From a virus: 48,591 nucleotides of DNA. Positions 4,107 through 32,633 of the stretch are shown in pieces. The stretch lies in UHGV virus genome UHGV-0185643; one strand, given 5' to 3'. Position 1 is the first letter of the stretch; each line of letters opens with the position of its first letter. The translations under genes were made by a program, and so were the position numbers. The notes under the pieces are model-generated. The model did not search any database. It was not told where the DNA came from and saw only the letters and a program-made list of their open reading frames with translations.

Positions 4107-4781
4107 TTAATCATATGCAGCTGTGTTTATCGCCGTTATCACAATTCCACTATTTGTCGTACCGATTGAAGAGCCGCTTGCTGTTGTTGATGTAAGTCCT
4201 TTTATTCTCGTTCCCGCACCTTCATTGAAGCAACCTGTACCCACATCCACAGACTGAATGATTGGCTGTCCACCAGGTGCCGAACCAGCATGAAGGAGAA
4301 CAGATCCCAGCCCCATCGGATTTATGGCCCATTTGCCTGCCATGTATGTATCAATGTTAAGCCCACCACTTACAGCACCTGGTGAACCAATAGTTGTAAG
4401 GTCGCTTAATACCCGGGACTCATTCGTAAGTACCAGTGTCCCTTCGGCATCCCATATAGCCACCCCCCAGGCAGGAAGCGTAAGCGGATATATGGCAAAA
4501 AAATAGGCCTCAAGGACAAAAGCCGATCCCCTGTAATTAGACGCATTAACACTGAACGTATTGCCACTTTTTGAAGCTGATATCTTCGCCGGGGCGCTGG
4601 TTCGTGCAAATGCAATCCCTCCCTTCTGACCGTCGATAGTAACAGACGCCGAAACACTGTTAAAATTCCCCCCAAAAGTTGAGTTTACAGTGACTTTCCG
4701 GTAAAGCGTCATTGGTGTGGAATCAGGCGTGATAAAAGGGTTCCCGTTAGGTAATGAAATCAATGCGCCATATTTAGCCAT
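4107..4781 (-). CDS. Hypothetical tail-associated protein (224 aa) downstream of J
   Basis: ORF translationally coupled to the preceding ORF; Gly/Ser/Thr-rich; no recognisable motif. Confidence 0.5.
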   Translation of the reverse strand: MAKYGALISLPNGNPFITPDSTPMTLYRKVTVNSTFGGNFNSVSASVTIDGQKGGIAFARTSAPAKISASKSGNTFSVNASNYRGSAFVLEAYFFAIYPLTLPAWGVAIWDAEGTLVLTNESRVLSDLTTIGSPGAVSGGLNIDTYMAGKWAINPMGLGSVLLHAGSAPGGQPIIQSVDVGTGCFNEGAGTRIKGLTSTTASGSSIGTTNSGIVITAINTAAYD

Positions 4782-11011: not shown

Positions 11012-12625
11012 ATGAATATTGTGCATTATGCAGCCATTGGAGCTGTAGCTTTCGTAGTTGTTCTAACAATTTTGGTGATAAACATCATTAAATTAAAGTC
11101 AGCCAAGGCTGATGCAGCAGAAAAGGCGGCAAAACTTGAGCGTTACGCGTCAATCACCAATGCTGAAACAGAAGCTGAACGAATCGTGAATGCAGCTAAG
11201 CAAACCGCAGAAGAGTTAATTATTGATTCGCAGAATAACCTTGACGAGGCAAAAGCTGAAGCAGCCAACACTATTGCAGCCAGTGAAAAAGATGCAAGAT
11301 CTATAACACAGCGTGCGGAGGATATTCTATCAGATGCGCGTTTAGCAGCTAAGCGAATGAACGCAGAGGCGCTGACCGCTGTAGAAACACAAAGAGTCAA
11401 GCGTGCAGAAATTGAAAAACAGATTGATGAATTGCGTAAATCCTATCGTGAGAAAAAAATCACTTACGATGAGCTGACGGAAGCCCTGTCAATTTATAAA
11501 GATGATATGGAATTTGCTGACATGGGGTTCTATGCACCACACTTCGATTTTGATACCTCGGCTAGTTTTCAGGATGCGATCAAGGCATGTCGCGAACGGC
11601 AAAAAAATCTGCTACGTGACAAAACTGAATTTGGCGCAATACATTGCCCTACTGAATGGACGGTTGGCGGCTCTAAAAGTGAAGGTCGGAAAATGACCAC
11701 TCGCGGCATTCAGATGACAGCACGTGCATTCAATGGTGAGTGTGATGCAGCTATTGCAAACTGCACATTTAAAAACGTTTATCAAATGGAGCAAAGAATT
11801 TATAAAGCCTTTGATGCCTTGAATAAGATGAATGAGGTTAACCAGATTTACATCAATCGTGCTTTTTTAGATTTGAAGCTGGATGAACTTCGACTTACAC
11901 ATGAATATCGTTTGAAAAAACAAGAAGAACGAGAAGAACAACGTGAAATCCGCGCTCAGATGGCTGAGGAGAAGCGAGCTCAAGCCGAAATTGATCGTGC
12001 ACTTCGAGAGGCTGAAGATGAAGAACGCCGCGCCCAAAAAGCGTTGGATAAAGCCCGAAAAGAAATGGAATCGAAGCTAGCCCAAATGACAGCTGAGCAA
12101 GTTGAGAAACACCAAGCGAAGGTATCCGAATTAGAACATGCCTTAGAAGAGGCATTGTTGAAAGGCCAAAAAGCTCTTTCTATGGCTCAACAAACTAAAC
12201 GCGGCCACGTGTACGTTATCTCTAATATTGGTTCGTTTGGTGATGATGTTTTTAAAATAGGAATGACACGTCGACTTGACCCTCAAGATCGAGTGGATGA
12301 ACTGGGTAGTGCATCAGTCCCATTCCTGTTCGATGTTCATGCAATGATTTTCAGTGAAGATGCACCAACAATGGAAAACATGCTCCACCAGCGTTTCAAT
12401 GAGCAACGCACTAACCTAGTTAATAAGCGTAAAGAGTTTTTCAATGTAAAATTAAGCGATATCAAAGATGCTGTGTTTGAGATCGCAGGTAAAGATGTAG
12501 ATTTTATCGAAACAGCAACTGCTCAGCATTATTATGAAACAAAGGCAATTCGTAAGCAGAAAGCGGATATCATTTCAGTTGTTCCTCAAGAGGAAAAACT
12601 ACCTAAATTTGCGGACGCAATATAA
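11012..12625 (+). CDS. Membrane-anchored coiled-coil protein (537 aa) with C-terminal T5orf172/GIY-YIG-like (MUG113-type) domain; candidate defence or exclusion effector
   Basis: N-terminal hydrophobic helix IGAVAFVVVLTILVINII; long charged heptad-like segments; C-terminal GHVYVISNIGSFGDDVFKIGMTRRLDPQDRVDEL...EFFNV motif; AGGGA RBS; transcribed against the tail operon; AT-rich. Confidence 0.6.
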   Translation: MNIVHYAAIGAVAFVVVLTILVINIIKLKSAKADAAEKAAKLERYASITNAETEAERIVNAAKQTAEELIIDSQNNLDEAKAEAANTIAASEKDARSITQRAEDILSDARLAAKRMNAEALTAVETQRVKRAEIEKQIDELRKSYREKKITYDELTEALSIYKDDMEFADMGFYAPHFDFDTSASFQDAIKACRERQKNLLRDKTEFGAIHCPTEWTVGGSKSEGRKMTTRGIQMTARAFNGECDAAIANCTFKNVYQMEQRIYKAFDALNKMNEVNQIYINRAFLDLKLDELRLTHEYRLKKQEEREEQREIRAQMAEEKRAQAEIDRALREAEDEERRAQKALDKARKEMESKLAQMTAEQVEKHQAKVSELEHALEEALLKGQKALSMAQQTKRGHVYVISNIGSFGDDVFKIGMTRRLDPQDRVDELGSASVPFLFDVHAMIFSEDAPTMENMLHQRFNEQRTNLVNKRKEFFNVKLSDIKDAVFEIAGKDVDFIETATAQHYYETKAIRKQKADIISVVPQEEKLPKFADAI

Positions 12626-12685: not shown

Positions 12686-13168
12686 TTACATGTTTTTGTA
12701 ATAGCCGACTTTAGAATCAAAGTCCTGTTTTGCGAGTGGCGTTTGGCTTGTCACATAAGTCTCCCAGGAGCTGTACGCCTCTACGAGCGCGCGCTTTTCT
12801 TCTGCATCCTTAGTACTCGATTTCATTATTTCAAACACTCCAGAAGCATTCTCTTTGCGTTTGTTTTTTCTGTTAGCGCCGCAAGTCGCTATTGCATCGG
12901 CTACAGAATTATTCCACCCAACCAACTGCAGGATCTCCATTCTCTTTTGAATCACGAACTGATCCGCAGACGCATTCCGTGCCTGAGTCGACAGGTATTC
13001 AGCAAACTCCATTTTGTTCATTGGCACTTTGGAGACTGACTCAATATTTACGTCACACTTCGAAAGCTCATCATACTTGGCTTGTTTTTGCGCGTTGTTG
13101 ACTGGACCATTGCCCGCGCACGCAGAAAGAGCCATTGCTAACACCACTGTCGTGAAGACCTTTTTCAT
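12686..13168 (-). CDS. Lipoprotein (160 aa, lipobox LSAC), moron partner convergent with the T5orf172-like gene
   Basis: Signal peptide MKKVFTTVVLAMALSAC; start chosen at the second ATG for better SD spacing. Confidence 0.55.
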   Translation of the reverse strand: MKKVFTTVVLAMALSACAGNGPVNNAQKQAKYDELSKCDVNIESVSKVPMNKMEFAEYLSTQARNASADQFVIQKRMEILQLVGWNNSVADAIATCGANRKNKRKENASGVFEIMKSSTKDAEEKRALVEAYSSWETYVTSQTPLAKQDFDSKVGYYKNM

Positions 13169-13268
13169 TATCATCCCCTGATTAGTATGGTTTTGACATA
13201 ATAACCATGGGAGGCATCGGTGTAACCAGGTACGGGTTATATTGCCATATCAGAATTTACGACGATGC

Positions 13269-29732: not shown

Positions 29733-30293
29733 TTATTGGGCGGCATTCGCGTTGACTTGTCTCAGCATTTCAATTTCCCGGATGCCCGCTAGCTGGTTAT
29801 TCGCCTTCTCAATGGTAGCCAGCAGCGGATTAATCCATAGAACAGCCTGACAGTACGTTATTGAGCTGGCGGCAGCGGTGCTATCACCGGCTGCGTCAGC
29901 GTTCCCGGTATCGGGTTGCATTGCGCTGGCACGTAAACGGTACGCGTATTTGAGCAGCCCACCAGCAACATCAGCAGGCACAGGCAGATCACAGTTTTTT
30001 TCACGTCGTAGAATCTCCCGGTATTTGATGACTGTTCTCTCTGTGCCGGCATCTATCAGCGAATTCATGCGGCTGGCGTTCTCTGCTACTTGGTTAAACC
30101 GGTTGAAGTTGAAAGCCTGTGTAGTTATTACCGTCGCCTGTAATGCGTTATCGCTGCGCAGTACCCGGTTGTCATTCTCGAACGCGGTCAGCGCCGCATT
30201 GCTGCGTACCAGCAGAACACAGAGCACCGCAATGATGGTTACGACGACCACCAGCAGAATCGCGACAATCGTAATTTTGCTGGTTTTCATCAA
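29733..30293 (-). CDS. i-spanin (Rz-like)
   Basis: N-terminal TM helix [23 protein letters not shown]; start overlaps the endolysin stop; contains an embedded lipoprotein ORF in another frame. Confidence 0.6.
29858..30004 (-). CDS. o-spanin (Rz1-like lipoprotein) embedded in the Rz gene, GTG start
   Basis: In-frame GTG gives [19 protein letters not shown], a lipoprotein signal peptide with lipobox LVGC; Pro-rich mature part. Confidence 0.6.
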   Translation of the reverse strand: MKKTVICLCLLMLLVGCSNTRTVYVPAQCNPIPGTLTQPVIAPLPPAQ

Positions 30294-30862
30294 AATACCC
30301 CCGGAACTGATACCGGAATGCCTGGGTTAAGCGGCCCGAGCCCATCACCAAGAACCTGCGGTTTTTCTGCCCACAGGCAAACTTCACGCTCAATCTCACG
30401 CCGGGTGATTAAACCCTTCCACTGTTTGCCACCGGCATATGTCCAGCGCCGTAATTGTTCGCAAGCCCCTTTTGTGTCGCCCAGGTTGATTTTGCGTAGC
30501 AGCGTGGAGGTTTTGAAGTTGCCAGCACCGACGTTGTACGCGAATGAGTAAAGTGCACCCCGCATTGTTGCCGGGATCGGAACCTTGATGTAGGGGTCAA
30601 TCTGACGTGCGATGGTATTCAGATCTTTTGTGAGCAGAATGGCACACTCTGTCTCGGTGTACGTCTTCCCGATTTTGACGTCGCTGCCAGTGTGCCCGTA
30701 GCATACCGTCCAAACCCCAACTACATCCCGATAAGGCTGATAGCGCACACCTTCAAGGCCATCATTACCCGTTGGACCAATAATCAACGCCGCTGCGATA
30801 GCAATAGCGCCAGCGGGTATAGCTGCAATAACGCTATTCTTCAGCTTTGGTGGCATAGCCAT
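30290..30862 (-). CDS. SAR endolysin (GH24, phage-21 R-like lysozyme)
   Basis: N-terminal Gly/Ala-rich weakly hydrophobic SAR helix [20 protein letters not shown] followed by [18 protein letters not shown] with E-8aa-D-5aa-T catalytic spacing. Confidence 0.8.
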
Positions 30863-31112
30863 TGCGCCGATCCTCCCGTTCTTTCCAGCGGAAATACCAG
30901 TTCACTGCACAGGTAATAACTGTGCATGCGATACCGACAATAATTGCCCAGTCGCTCAGGCTTAACCCTGCAATTCTGTCGGCCAACATCCAGGACACCT
31001 CTTTTGCTGTTTTAGCTGTTTCGGCATATGCCTTCGCTGATACACCGCAGCCGGTCAGCGTGGTTCCTGTTCCATATGAAAGTCTGCTGTAAATGGTGCT
31101 CATTCTGGTCAT
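30834..31112 (-). CDS. Pinholin-like holin (S21-like) with dual-start motif MTRM
   Basis: GGAGGTGA SD 7 nt upstream of ATG at 31112; two in-frame Mets (M1, M4) separated by a basic residue; two TMDs; C-terminal basic tail resembling S21. Confidence 0.7.
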
Positions 31113-31220
31113 AGCCTCACCTCCGATTTTTCGGATGGCGCTGTGTGTGATGAAAGGGTCAGGCTTCACGGGCTGGATTTATCAACAAAGCACGTAGTAA
31201 TTGATTCCCGTGAGCCTGAA

Positions 31221-31248
31221 ATGAAAAAGGCCGCCATTTGGCAGCCTC
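31221..31248 (-). terminator. Terminator-like hairpin between the Q-junction lipoprotein gene and the lysis genes (tR'-like candidate)
   Basis: Imperfect stem followed on the minus strand by a U5 run. Confidence 0.4.
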
Positions 31249-31492
31249 GAAAAAAAATAAGATTGTTTAAATCGACATATTAAGTGGATTACCAAAAACC
31301 TCTGACATAGCGATAAGACAAATGATGTCGCTATAAGTAACATGTCATATACCAACGACTGATTTTCCTTTCAGCCTCCTAACAGAGGTATCCGTGCAAT
31401 GCGCTATCTGAATAGCTCATCACGTACGATACAGCAACATTCTTCTGTATTAAAATCTATGAAATGAGCAACTGATAATAGTGGTTCAAATA

Positions 31493-31738
31493 CTATCGGC
31501 ATGAAGCGCTGGTACTGCATTGTAGTGTATCAGTAGGCACCCATTTACCATTGCTACATACGAATTTCTTCACTCCAGGAAAACCACCTGAAGTTGCACA
31601 CGTATAGCATTTCTCTTGCCCATTTACACATGCAGATTGTATTTGGTTGGGTGATTTATCAATTGTGGAAGAGTTTGTGCTGCATGCTGATAGAAAAAAC
31701 GCTGATAAAACAGTGGAGTAAAAAATTATCTTATGCAT
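31493..31738 (-). CDS. Cysteine-rich small lipoprotein (81 aa, lipobox LSAC) moron at the Q-lysis junction
   Basis: Signal peptide MHKIIFYSTVLSAFFLSAC; six further Cys; embedded in a strongly AT-rich segment. Confidence 0.6.
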   Translation of the reverse strand: MHKIIFYSTVLSAFFLSACSTNSSTIDKSPNQIQSACVNGQEKCYTCATSGGFPGVKKFVCSNGKWVPTDTLQCSTSASCR

Positions 31739-31943
31739 TTTTTATACCTTCATAAGATTATTAATATTATATATTTATCATTATAGGCGCCTTTAAAAAT
31801 CCTTCCAACCGACATTCAGAATGCTTTTTCTTACTCTCCAGAAACGCAAAAACCCAAGGCGTCAACCTCAGGCTTGAAAACTCATTTACTGCCAGTGCAT
31901 ACAACAATGGCACAATATCAGATTTACACGAAATATATCCATT

Positions 31944-32633
31944 TCAGTTCGGTTTTGCAAGACTTACATCCAAATTTGTCGCCTTTTGTTGTGAACGTGA
32001 TCGCGAAACAGAAAGGAGCGCCTGATTATCAAGGTGCACGAATTCTTGTTTCATCGCCAGCCAGTGCGGGAGGTAGGTTTCAGTCCAAGTTGGCTTTGAT
32101 ACCCCTACCAGTTGCGCCAGCTGCTGGTACTCGTATGTGCTGCGCCCTGCTAGTTCTGCTTTCACATCCTGAGCAGCAAGCCAAATTAACGCCTTCAACC
32201 GTTCGATGGTTTTACCAGCTATCTTTCGAGACCCCATCTGCGACTTGAATTCAGCCCACGCCCACTGAGTAATCAACACCTGACTCTCCCAGCTTACGTT
32301 CTCGCTGTAGTTCCACAGTAGCCAGGCCTTCTGGGGTTCTTCAAGTGACATCAGCGCCCGGCGCCACGATGCGGTGTAGAATTCTACCGGCTGCACCAGG
32401 GGAATATGTGAACCCTTGGCATGCGACTGTTTGCCCGGTATTGGTGGGTTATCCAGCGTAATCATTTTCCCGGTCACTTCATCATACACACGGAGCTTCT
32501 TACGTTTAAACGTTCCCGTATCAAACTGGGCGTTCTCAAGCCACGCCATCAACTGCCCTTTCGTCGCACCACTTAAATCGGCGGTGGCCACCATCAGCTG
32601 CTGGCGCACGTATTCGAGAAATTGAGTGTTCAT
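31944..32633 (-). CDS. Putative late-gene antiterminator (Q-like by position)
   Basis: 229 aa ORF between the nin genes and the lysis cassette; no Zn-finger cysteines, so family assignment is uncertain. Confidence 0.45.
   Translation of the reverse strand: MNTQFLEYVRQQLMVATADLSGATKGQLMAWLENAQFDTGTFKRKKLRVYDEVTGKMITLDNPPIPGKQSHAKGSHIPLVQPVEFYTASWRRALMSLEEPQKAWLLWNYSENVSWESQVLITQWAWAEFKSQMGSRKIAGKTIERLKALIWLAAQDVKAELAGRSTYEYQQLAQLVGVSKPTWTETYLPHWLAMKQEFVHLDNQALLSVSRSRSQQKATNLDVSLAKPN

Follow-up and report, generated by a model that had tools for sequence, protein, structure and literature searches.

What is the AT-rich block that separates the late antiterminator gene Q from the holin gene in this lambda-like phage, and what might the small lipoprotein that it appears to encode do? 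The window considered here is the whole 48,591-nucleotide stretch of viral DNA. All genes at the Q-holin locus lie on the minus strand, and the block is flanked by two of them:

31944-32633, minus strand: late antiterminator gene Q, 229 aa (PF06323 in Pfam, 2e-100; phrog_304, 3e-101), left flank of the slot
30834-31112, minus strand: holin gene, 92 aa, with an M-T-R-M dual start (PF16080, PF04971, phrog_20), right flank of the slot

The holin begins at ATG 31112, with GGAGGTGAGG located just 5' of the start codon, which yields a 279-nt gene equal to the annotated holins of relatives. Since Q ends at 31944, the gap between the two genes runs from 31943 to 31113 and spans 831 bp. An earlier note on this DNA had described a very AT-rich block of about 0.8 kb between a Q-like gene and the holin, and the block itself stands (831 bp, 38.6% GC); its left coordinate of 31170 does not, as it implied a start at GTG 31169, which is not the holin start. 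The GC content is 37.5% within the coordinates given earlier, 29.9% between 31600 and 31800 and 50.6% over the whole window.

Comparison with relatives divides the gap into backbone and foreign DNA. In five independent relatives, the blastn alignments break at 31836, 31835 or 31830 on the left and at 31246, 31232 or 31229 on the right, and the segment between them is distinct in composition:

31247-31835, minus strand: foreign cargo (moron), 589 bp, 35.5% GC, delimited by blastn breakpoints and GC content

At the equivalent map position the five relatives lack this DNA and instead carry unrelated genes, or nothing annotated. The composition of the cargo deviates from that of its flanks (51.6% GC for Q and 49.6% for the holin), and the copy of the cargo in locus L005 is 98.6% identical, whereas the flanks there are 62-94% identical. 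A low-stringency blastn search with the cargo DNA against phage and E. coli genome collections gave no match. We note that the limits of the 589-bp cargo (31835-31247) and the promoter that it carries were not part of the earlier note.

On the minus strand the order of elements is Q, the late promoter PR', a short leader to the terminator tR', the cargo, a slot terminator, an inverted repeat and the holin. The elements upstream of the cargo are as follows:

31932-31960, minus strand: candidate late promoter PR', overlapping the end of Q (consensus scan; -35 TTGCAA, 17-nt spacer, -10 TATATT)
31849-31928, minus strand: short leader of the late promoter (terminator scan and fold), starting with the conserved block TGTAAATCTGATAT
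31875-31850, minus strand: candidate tR' hairpin, which ends the leader and is followed by a T-run to ~31841

We infer a late-promoter function for the PR' candidate, the -35 element of which is invariant, and the -10 element kept, in six loci with Q genes that are only 67-90% identical. The block TGTAAATCTGATAT may represent a pause or Q-loading element. The candidate tR' hairpin is likewise conserved, with one relative having a different stem at that spot. The PR'/tR' candidate pair (31960-31841) is missing from the earlier note. An Rfam scan of the whole gap returned nothing at gathering score; the leader weakly resembles IsrJ of Gifsy-1, with a full-length match to Rfam isrJ of 16.1 bits (gathering score 37) in which the first 14 nt are identical.

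In Stx phages, stx is located 3' of Q, the late promoter and its terminator, and 5' of the holin (PMC8065619). The same arrangement is seen here, with Q, the PR' and tR' candidates, the cargo and the holin following in order on one strand. Indeed, the proposal that the insertion occupies the Q-to-lysis junction equivalent to that of stx is borne out, the cargo being in the orientation of the late operon, 3' of the PR'/tR'-like pair and 5' of the holin. From this position, which is like that of stx and of isrK-orf45-anrP-isrJ in Gifsy-1, read-through of the cargo by Q-modified polymerase would be expected (PMC8065619, PMC4825925). In contrast to the stx and Gifsy-1 loci, however, the cargo contains no toxin, tRNA or antirepressor gene but a single 81-codon lipoprotein gene, and a strong terminator is situated between cargo and holin.

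The cargo is accompanied by signals of its own, and the backbone on its holin side by a further conserved structure:

31780-31808, minus strand: candidate sigma-70 promoter of the cargo, TTGGAA-17-TATAAT, matching the consensus at 10/12 positions
31227-31248, minus strand: predicted intrinsic terminator closing the slot, a 9-bp GC stem followed by a U-run (terminator scan and fold)
31158-31219, minus strand: conserved long inverted repeat in the holin-side backbone, with a 13-bp stem and a conserved loop (fold z = -4.9)

When both strands of the 48.6-kb window are considered, only two sites score at least 10/12, one of them being the promoter candidate, and 4% of shuffled versions of the 97-nt upstream region score as well (p ~0.04). 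In L005, which has the only other copy of this promoter, the -35 element is altered to TTGGAC, so that conservation does not confirm the candidate. The presence of the candidate suggests that the cargo could be expressed in the lysogen too. AT-rich DNA is often silenced by H-NS in enterobacteria.

The slot terminator corresponds to the terminator-like hairpin reported earlier before the holin, and its predicted stem-loop at 31248-31227, GAGGCUGCC-AAAU-GGCGGCCUU followed by UUUCAUUU, endows the cargo with a terminator of its own. It folds with -16.3 kcal/mol (z = -4.1), and none of 200 shuffles folds equally well. Nearly all relatives have hairpins of other sequence before a common T-run, the hairpin in L002 being unclear. 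Judged from these sequences, the predicted terminator is not a holin feature but an insulator of the lysis genes; the left breakpoint of the cargo is the T-run of the candidate tR', and the right breakpoint is the T-run of this second predicted terminator. The inverted repeat recurs in 10 loci, some of them in phages that have a different type of Q. Covariation within it was considered and is unconvincing, as one relative retains one arm and alters the other.

Morons in the sense of Hendrix and Juhala are extra genes of deviant composition, with their own promoter and terminator, that are expressed from the repressed prophage (summarised in PMC3594210). Like morons of the HK97/HK022 type (HK97 gene 15; lambda bor and lom), the cargo is an extra gene that is absent from close relatives, deviates in GC content and is flanked by promoter-like and terminator-like signals. 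In addition, its product is predicted to reside in the envelope, as are Bor, Lom and gp15, but the protein is unrelated to any of these, and the cargo occupies the Q-holin slot rather than a site in the tail operon or 3' of the lysis genes. We consider this anatomy of the cassette very probable. The locus is thus an ordinary, well-formed moron, a known type of phage add-on, encoding a protein without recognisable relatives.

The features of the encoded protein are the following:

31493-31738, minus strand: prelipoprotein ORF, 81 aa, stop codon included in the coordinates (lipobox rule and reading frame)
31747-31751, minus strand: Shine-Dalgarno sequence GAAGG, 8 nt 5' of the ATG, read from the sequence
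31738-31685, minus strand: predicted signal peptide, codons 1-18 (lipobox LSAC, Cys19)
31684-31496, minus strand: predicted mature part, 63 aa, with six further Cys

The N-terminus reads MHKIIFYSTVLSAFFLSAC followed by STNSS. A PROSITE-type rule for lipoproteins calls for a basic residue among the first 7, an uncharged hydrophobic stretch, the pattern [LVI][ASTVI][GAS]C and a Cys at position 15-35; the ORF offers Lys3, TVLSAFFLSAC at residues 9-19 and Cys19. Beyond Cys19, cysteines are found at positions 37, 44, 47, 61, 74 and 80, so that the 81-aa lipoprotein with an LSAC lipobox and six further Cys described by the earlier note is indeed seen in the ORF 31738-31493. Its length alone is weak evidence for a gene (p ~0.04-0.07), as dinucleotide shuffling of the cargo yields an ORF of at least 81 aa in 4% of cases when an ATG start is required and in 7% when any start is allowed. 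The lipobox pattern is rarer: only 2 of the 574 Met-started sub-ORFs of at least 40 aa in the window have it, namely this ORF and one other gene. Together with the GAAGG Shine-Dalgarno, this rarity makes a chance ORF unlikely, and on sequence grounds the ORF probably encodes a real exported lipoprotein. Two smaller ORFs in the 3' tail of the cargo, of 38 aa (31520-31404) and 57 aa (31355-31182), were not accepted as genes, as neither has a family match or a Shine-Dalgarno sequence at a usable distance, and the longer one crosses the terminator and the cargo boundary.

Beyond near-identical copies, the lipoprotein appears to be an orphan, with no credible relative among the collections searched. 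A word-indexed search of 5.8 billion clusters matched the ORF product only to itself, whereas a full phmmer search of 1.84 billion representatives returned, besides itself, the giant repeat proteins P0002 (14 repeats) and P0003 (8 repeats). We rejected the former as a compositional, repeat-summed artefact, since one repeat aligns at 32% identity with no Cys matched, and the latter as the same artefact, judged from sequence alone. Neither tblastn against phages and plasmids (no match) nor an exact-protein contig lookup (no record) added a relative. Scans against Pfam, PHROGs, NCBIfam and PADLOC gave sub-threshold matches only, mostly driven by the signal peptide (DUF6006, MapA, YgdI/YgdR and unnamed PHROGs), and the name 'DUF4969' on an nr record is not reproduced by Pfam. 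Scans of viral, genome and metagenome contigs revealed only two viral contigs with the same cassette and a match to Spirabiliibacterium falconis confined to the signal peptide. The similarity is to the start of a 192-aa lipoprotein of that species and covers the signal peptide plus the first residues of the linker (18 of 33 residues identical), the remainder being unlike. The copies of the ORF (P0001, P0004, L004 and L005) are exact or near-exact, and the four differ by 2 synonymous and 1-2 non-synonymous changes, too few to gauge selection.

Such an extremely narrow distribution, with four near-identical copies among billions of proteins, would also be expected of a functionless passenger, a recent and possibly truncated lipoprotein fragment from an AT-rich bacterium that has hitch-hiked into a recombination hot spot and is silent or decaying. 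The Spirabiliibacterium likeness would fit an ORF that arose as a chimera or by truncation, the ORF is short enough for its length alone to have p = 0.04-0.07, and the 244-nt non-coding tail behind it, with stops in every frame, resembles leftover DNA. On the other hand, the ORF is intact and all seven Cys are kept in 4/4 copies, in two phage backgrounds with diverged flanks. The full set of expression signals is present (promoter candidate, Shine-Dalgarno, lipobox and terminator), and the Cys-rich part is modelled with moderate confidence as a beta-sheet rather than as disorder. We therefore regard a mere passenger as unlikely.

The tail raises a separate possibility:

31249-31492, minus strand: 3' untranslated part of the cargo, 244 nt, 34.8% GC, with stops in all frames on six-frame translation

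In Gifsy-1 the same slot produces the regulatory RNAs IsrK and IsrJ (PMC4825925). With this precedent, the selected product of the cargo could be a small RNA that stops at the slot terminator and is either antisense or derived from the 3' UTR, with the ORF being secondary; indeed, the last part of the untranslated tail is U-rich and runs into a strong hairpin and a U-run. However, the predicted fold of the tail is no more stable than that of shuffled sequences (z = -0.7), the tail has no Rfam family near threshold, and a search of viral contigs for exact 22-mers of the tail found no copy of it that lacks the ORF. An RNA as the selected product thus seems very unlikely.

As the ORF lies directly 5' of the holin-endolysin-Rz/Rz1 genes, in the same orientation and 3' of PR', and as its product is predicted to be exported to the compartment where endolysin and spanin act, it could alternatively be a lysis accessory. 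Expressed only with the late operon, such a protein of the periplasm or outer membrane would tune a SAR-type endolysin, the spanin or the timing of lysis. The lysis cassette is, however, complete without the ORF, comprising the holin, a lysozyme with a hydrophobic N-terminus, Rz (phrog_214, 1.4e-52) and an embedded lipobox ORF at 30052-29858 as an Rz1 candidate, so that a role as spanin is not needed. Consistently, no spanin PHROG matched the lipoprotein in a search for an o-spanin (Rz1-like) relationship, and its 63 mature residues contain only 3 Pro, whereas o-spanins, the outer-membrane lipoprotein partners of Rz, are usually rich in Pro and encoded within or beside Rz. The ORF is absent from relatives whose holin, endolysin and spanin modules are the same (94-95% identical), so that this lysis system can do without it; the slots of these relatives hold cytoplasmic-looking proteins, some on the opposite strand. 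Nor does a lysis role fit with the promoter candidate of the cargo, the strong terminator between ORF and holin, or the lack of similarity to spanins, antiholins and lysozyme inhibitors. We judge such a role decidedly unlikely.

The earlier note had proposed profile and structure searches of the mature lipoprotein; the profile searches identified no family, and three fold searches gave no significant match. Single-sequence AF2 predictions reached a pLDDT of 57 and 68 in two runs. The Cys-rich core is predicted to form three beta-strands with a mean pLDDT of 68, the beta-hairpin around the Trp having the highest predicted confidence. The top fold matches, SH2 and PH, are noise from the three-stranded sheet. 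A different, weak resemblance emerged when the mature part was compared with PDB sequences by phmmer, where the top rank went to CCP modules of complement factor H (E = 2e-4), followed by HpARI, which is built of CCP modules (E = 7.7e-4), although these low whole-sequence values are repeats summed, with a per-module E of only ~1.5. CCP modules (PF00084) are about 60 residues long and have four Cys, paired 1-3 and 2-4, with a conserved Trp between Cys3 and Cys4. The local motif Y-x-C...V-C-x-N-G-K-W-x-P...C of the lipoprotein aligns with them; in full it reads Y-x-C...G...V-C-x-N-G-K-W-V-P...C, such that Cys47, Cys61, Trp66 and Cys74 align to CCP Cys2, Cys3, Trp and Cys4. Three controls, one reversed and two shuffled with Cys fixed, gave nothing comparable, the best being a neurotoxin at E = 0.18.

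These ranks, the negative controls and the CCP-like length of the span from Cys19 to Cys74 (56 residues) would suit a surface lipoprotein that acts on the host of the bacterium through lysogenic conversion. Such a protein would confer serum or complement protection or adhesion in the manner of Bor, possibly via a mini CCP-like domain. Lambda Bor, an outer-membrane lipoprotein moron involved in serum resistance (cited in PMC3594210), provides a precedent. Furthermore, the window appears to derive from a human-associated virome, as indicated by a TPA Caudoviricetes record and by the nearest E. coli prophage, which belongs to an isolate from a human. Against this stand the per-module E of ~1.5 and the lack of a Pfam Sushi match, only DUF6006 (E = 0.1) being listed for the mature part at E <= 10 by HMMER, whose filters may hide very weak matches. 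No CCP protein was found at E <= 0.001 in the 1.84-billion library. In addition, the equivalent of CCP Cys1 would be the lipidated Cys19, which could not form a Cys1-Cys3 disulfide. The N-terminal half of a CCP module is missing here or replaced by a tether, two extra Cys are present, and the fold searches are unsupportive. Similarity to Bor/Iss (PF06291) is also lacking, with no Pfam report at E <= 0.1 for the full protein or at E <= 10 for the mature part. A host-interaction role of this general kind is, in our assessment, improbable. It is extremely improbable that the mature protein is specifically a miniaturised, lipid-anchored CCP-like module, a eukaryote-type mimic of complement regulators brought by a phage to an enterobacterial host and made massively on induction. 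Such a module would shield the lysogen from complement or attach to a CCP ligand of the host. Poxviruses and herpesviruses carry CCP proteins, an analogue of such a module.

We tentatively favour, with somewhat less than even confidence in the reading as a whole, a horizontally acquired moron cassette in a hypervariable tR'-holin slot that encodes an envelope lipoprotein masking a phage receptor. In the lysogen, transcripts from PR' would end at tR', and the cargo promoter would give rise to an mRNA of ~545 nt that ends at the slot terminator, so that the lysis genes would stay silent. Upon induction, Q-modified polymerase would pass both terminators, so that the ORF and the lysis cassette would be transcribed together in large amounts. 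For Stx and lambdoid phages it is established that Q brings about read-through and that PR'/tR' transcription is constitutive (PMC8065619); by analogy, expression of the ORF is probably weak in the lysogen and becomes strong once Q antiterminates. The product would be exported by Sec, lipidated at Cys19 and cleaved by signal peptidase II, and would presumably be sorted to the outer membrane because it has Ser at +2 and no Asp retention signal. The mature 63 residues would then comprise a Ser/Thr-rich tether and a three-stranded domain of ~45 residues, probably with up to three disulfides.

At the cell surface, by analogy with known exclusion proteins, the small lipoprotein may bind an outer-membrane protein and thereby mask a phage receptor, which would lead to superinfection exclusion and shield the progeny from debris, as with T5 Llp and the Cor proteins. 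Both Llp and Cor are described as small lipoproteins of the outer membrane that act in exclusion and contain an intramolecular disulfide, and such proteins are said to occur commonly in coliphages (PMC9586334). Like these proteins, which bind FhuA, the lipoprotein has a mature size of about 60 residues, a lipobox, a predicted outer-membrane anchor and disulfide potential (PMC9586334), and it is phage-encoded and non-essential. It differs in having six non-lipidated Cys rather than two, and it has no detectable sequence similarity to T5 Llp, although the PDB holds the FhuA-Llp complex (no Llp chain by phmmer at E <= 10). Likewise, no Llp/Cor PHROG was matched at E <= 0.1 and no such Pfam or NCBIfam family. 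Moreover, genes for known exclusion lipoproteins usually adjoin the gene for the receptor-binding protein, whereas this ORF sits in the Q-holin slot. We note that the J-like gene (8452-5096) and the tail fibre gene (3700-2144) are ~23 kb distant, and that a lipobox scan found no Cor-like lipoprotein elsewhere in the window. A role in the envelope that masks a receptor or protects the cell is the likeliest of those considered, but receptor masking as such is doubtful.

In lambdoid phages, cargo placed in the Q-to-holin slot stays silent in the lysogen or is expressed from a promoter of its own, and is amplified on induction, the notorious case being Shiga toxin. The exact, reusable breakpoints at this locus explain how unrelated cargo can be swapped while late-gene control stays intact and with no leakage into the lysis genes. 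If the lipoprotein masks a receptor or protects from serum, it would represent a new sequence family in those classes, and if the CCP resemblance is true, it would be a rare case of complement-regulator mimicry by a bacterial virus.

The Q-to-holin region is read on the minus strand and is bounded by a Q antiterminator gene and a lysis cassette:

32633-31944, minus strand: Q antiterminator gene (Pfam PF06323, 2e-100; phrog_304), the upstream flank of the gap
30834-31112, minus strand: holin gene (PF16080 and PF04971; phrog_20), the downstream flank of the gap
30290-30862, minus strand: lysozyme with a hydrophobic N-terminus (PF00959), part of the lysis cassette
Within the lysis cassette, minus strand: Rz-like spanin (phrog_214), whose embedded lipobox ORF resembles Rz1

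The holin starts at the ATG at 31112, which is preceded by GGAGGTGAGG and opens an MTRM dual start, giving a 279-nt gene equal in length to the annotated holins of relatives, and not at the GTG at 31169 implied by the left coordinate of an earlier note on this DNA. This leaves a Q-to-holin gap of 831 bp, with 38.6% GC compared with 50.6% in the window and a trough of 29.9% GC at 31600-31800, in line with the AT-rich block of about 0.8 kb that the note described. The holin also matches the phage 21 holin S family, which together with the hydrophobic N-terminus of the lysozyme suggests lysis by a pinholin plus a signal-anchor-release endolysin. NinG and an HNH endonuclease ORF (213 aa, PF01844, 32764-33405, minus strand) precede the Q gene; the endonuclease ORF is inserted between NinG and Q, where relatives carry RusA or YlcG in its place.

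The layout of the slot, the variable stretch between Q and holin, was established by comparison (blastn and alignments) with E. coli prophages (L001-L003), phage HK225 (L007), Klebsiella phages (L008, L011 and L012), phage Louie (L013) and two viral contigs (L004 and L005). The elements on either side of the foreign cargo are:

31960-31932, minus strand: promoter-like site TTGCAA-17-TATATT, overlapping the end of Q and followed by the block TGTAAATCTGATAT
31875-31841, minus strand: conserved hairpin and T-run, the stem being replaced by another in one relative
31248-31227, minus strand: second (slot) terminator hairpin, -16.3 kcal/mol, z = -4.1
31219-31158, minus strand: long inverted repeat with a 13-bp stem, z = -4.9, between the slot terminator and the holin ribosome-binding site

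In the alignments, the promoter-like site and its adjoining block are kept even in loci with Q genes that are only 67-70% identical. We read them as a candidate late promoter PR' with a pause or Q-loading region, and the hairpin at 31875-31841 as the candidate terminator tR', a pair that would yield a leader of ~80 nt. This leader (31849-31928, minus strand) weakly resembles Rfam isrJ over its full length (16.1 bits; gathering score 37), and its first 14 nt are identical. In Gifsy-1, IsrJ is found near the Q-like antQ gene, and lysogens express it constitutively (PMC4825925, PMC7067206); these observations suggest that IsrJ is a leader transcribed from a Q-dependent late promoter and ended by termination. 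While the earlier note was right about the position and kind of the locus, it missed PR' and tR' and gave this regulatory layout only in part.

Similarity to all relatives stops at 31836-31830, just beyond the tR' T-run, and returns at 31246-31229, within the second terminator hairpin or at its base, a hairpin that the note had already recognized before the holin. The cargo therefore spans 31835-31247 (589 bp, 35.5% GC), with the T-runs of the two terminators at its limits. In nearly every relative, a GC hairpin of differing sequence occupies the equivalent of 31227-31248 and is followed by an identical T-run and downstream sequence (positions compared in L001, L003, L007, L008 and L011-L013). 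The two T-runs, the left being that of tR', look like recombination joints of the slot. The inverted repeat keeps an identical loop, GTTGATAAATCCAGCC, in ten phages and prophages, some with a different Q family, and its arms show no clear covariation. In relatives, the slot itself contains an ORF of 171 aa (forward), 165 aa (reverse) or 136 aa (reverse; HK225_067), or no annotated feature; these ORFs have no Pfam or PADLOC match and all fall in PHROGs of unknown function. The window and L005 share 98.6% identity in the cargo, compared with 62% in the distal half of Q, 94% in the leader, 90% in the terminator-repeat region and 94% in the holin, so the cassette has recently been transferred between different phage backgrounds.

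Within the cargo lie a promoter candidate, an ORF and a 244-nt tail:

31808-31780, minus strand: near-consensus sigma-70 promoter candidate TTGGAA-17-TATAAT
31738-31493, minus strand: lipoprotein ORF, encoding MHKIIFYSTVLSAFFLSACSTNSSTIDKSPNQIQSACVNGQEKCYTCATSGGFPGVKKFVCSNGKWVPTDTLQCSTSASCR

The promoter candidate is one of just two sites in the whole window, on either strand, that score at least 10/12, a score reached by 4% of local shuffles. Stop codons interrupt the tail in all reading frames, and its folding is no more stable than that of shuffled sequences; that the cargo acts through an RNA product seems improbable. The ORF is preceded by the Shine-Dalgarno sequence GAAGG, 8 nt 5' of its ATG, and its product satisfies the PROSITE-type lipoprotein rule, with Lys3, an uncharged hydrophobic stretch and the lipobox LSAC ending in Cys19. 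The six further cysteines counted in the earlier note are at positions 37, 44, 47, 61, 74 and 80. Length alone is weak evidence, as 4-7% of dinucleotide-shuffled cargos yield an ORF of this length or more. The lipobox pattern is far less common: of 574 Met-started sub-ORFs in the window, those of just two genes carry it. The lipoprotein gene is probably real. In E. coli, the residue after the lipidated cysteine governs membrane sorting (the '+2 rule'), and Ser at this position predicts outer-membrane sorting of the product.

In a word-indexed search of 5.8 billion clusters, the sole match was the protein itself, nr DAZ53678.1, a TPA Caudoviricetes record whose label 'DUF4969' was not reproduced. 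The substitutions seen are I26F and P54S in one ENA variant and P54S in the L005 copy. Beyond self, an exhaustive phmmer scan of 1.84 billion representatives found just two giant repeat proteins: P0002 was rejected as a homologue because one repeat aligns without any cysteine match, and P0003 as a similar repeat artefact, judged from its sequence alone. Phage, plasmid, E. coli, genome and metagenome collections added only a 192-aa chromosomal Pasteurellaceae lipoprotein (Spirabiliibacterium falconis, L006 4004-4582), which has 18/33 residues in common, confined to the signal peptide and the start of the linker (FFLSACST.SS.IDK), a possible hint of an AT-rich donor lineage. No family was assigned by profile searches of Pfam, PHROGs, NCBIfam and PADLOC. 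Sequence tests did not place the protein in the Llp/Cor, Bor, Rz1 or Sushi families; it is an orphan.

The sole lead came from PDB sequences, against which phmmer placed complement factor H CCP modules first (E = 2e-4), followed by CCP-built HpARI at E = 7.7e-4, aligning Y-x-C47, C61-x-N-G-K-W66 and C74 with CCP Cys2, Cys3, Trp and Cys4; a reversed and two Cys-fixed shuffled sequences produced nothing comparable. The evidence against is substantial: per-module E-values are only ~1.5, the Pfam scan did not report the Sushi model and no CCP protein surfaced in the 1.84-billion-representative library. A CCP-like module is retained as a very improbable reading.

By analogy with lambdoid late operons (PMC8065619), we suggest that PR' fires constitutively and that transcription halts at tR'. 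In the lysogen, the cargo promoter could drive lipoprotein expression, while the slot terminator would hold this transcription away from the lysis genes. On induction, Q-modified polymerase would ignore both terminators and transcribe the lipoprotein gene together with the lysis genes at high level. After export, lipidation and cleavage, the protein would reach the outer membrane. Its mature form would comprise a Ser/Thr-rich tether and a ~45-residue domain, which AF2 models as a three-stranded sheet (mean pLDDT 68, core) and which would have up to three disulfides.

We ranked possible functions by analogy with known small phage lipoproteins. Receptor masking or superinfection exclusion, as by T5 Llp and Cor (PMC9586334), comes first as a tentative reading. 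A host-interaction or serum-resistance role like that of Bor is unlikely, and a functionless passenger equally so. A lysis accessory is more doubtful still: the ORF is missing from relatives that carry the same lysis genes. The RNA product ranks last.

Other candidate envelope or defence genes are present in the window. A 537-aa ORF (11012-12625, plus strand), oriented against the tail genes around it, matches PADLOC PD-Lambda-1 (E = 5e-201; also phrog_1847); this gene for anti-phage defence forms a second moron in the tail region. Adjoining it, just downstream of a 1015-aa tape-measure-sized ORF, is a second lipobox protein (162 aa, MKKVFTTVVLAMALSAC..., 12686-13174, minus strand; phrog_8179, unknown function). 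A 224-aa ORF (4107-4781, minus strand) beside the J-like central tail fibre gene (8452-5096) matches phrog_425, annotated as moron 'membrane associated protein', and represents another envelope-directed add-on of the phage.

The cassette fits the definition of a moron (PMC3594210). The analysis bears out the earlier note's observation. The cargo follows the candidate PR'/tR' and precedes the holin, and this is exactly where Stx phages carry stx (PMC8065619), as the note proposed. Whereas that slot holds stx in Stx phages, here it holds an orphan lipoprotein gene, and the cassette would represent a textbook moron in the stx-equivalent slot.
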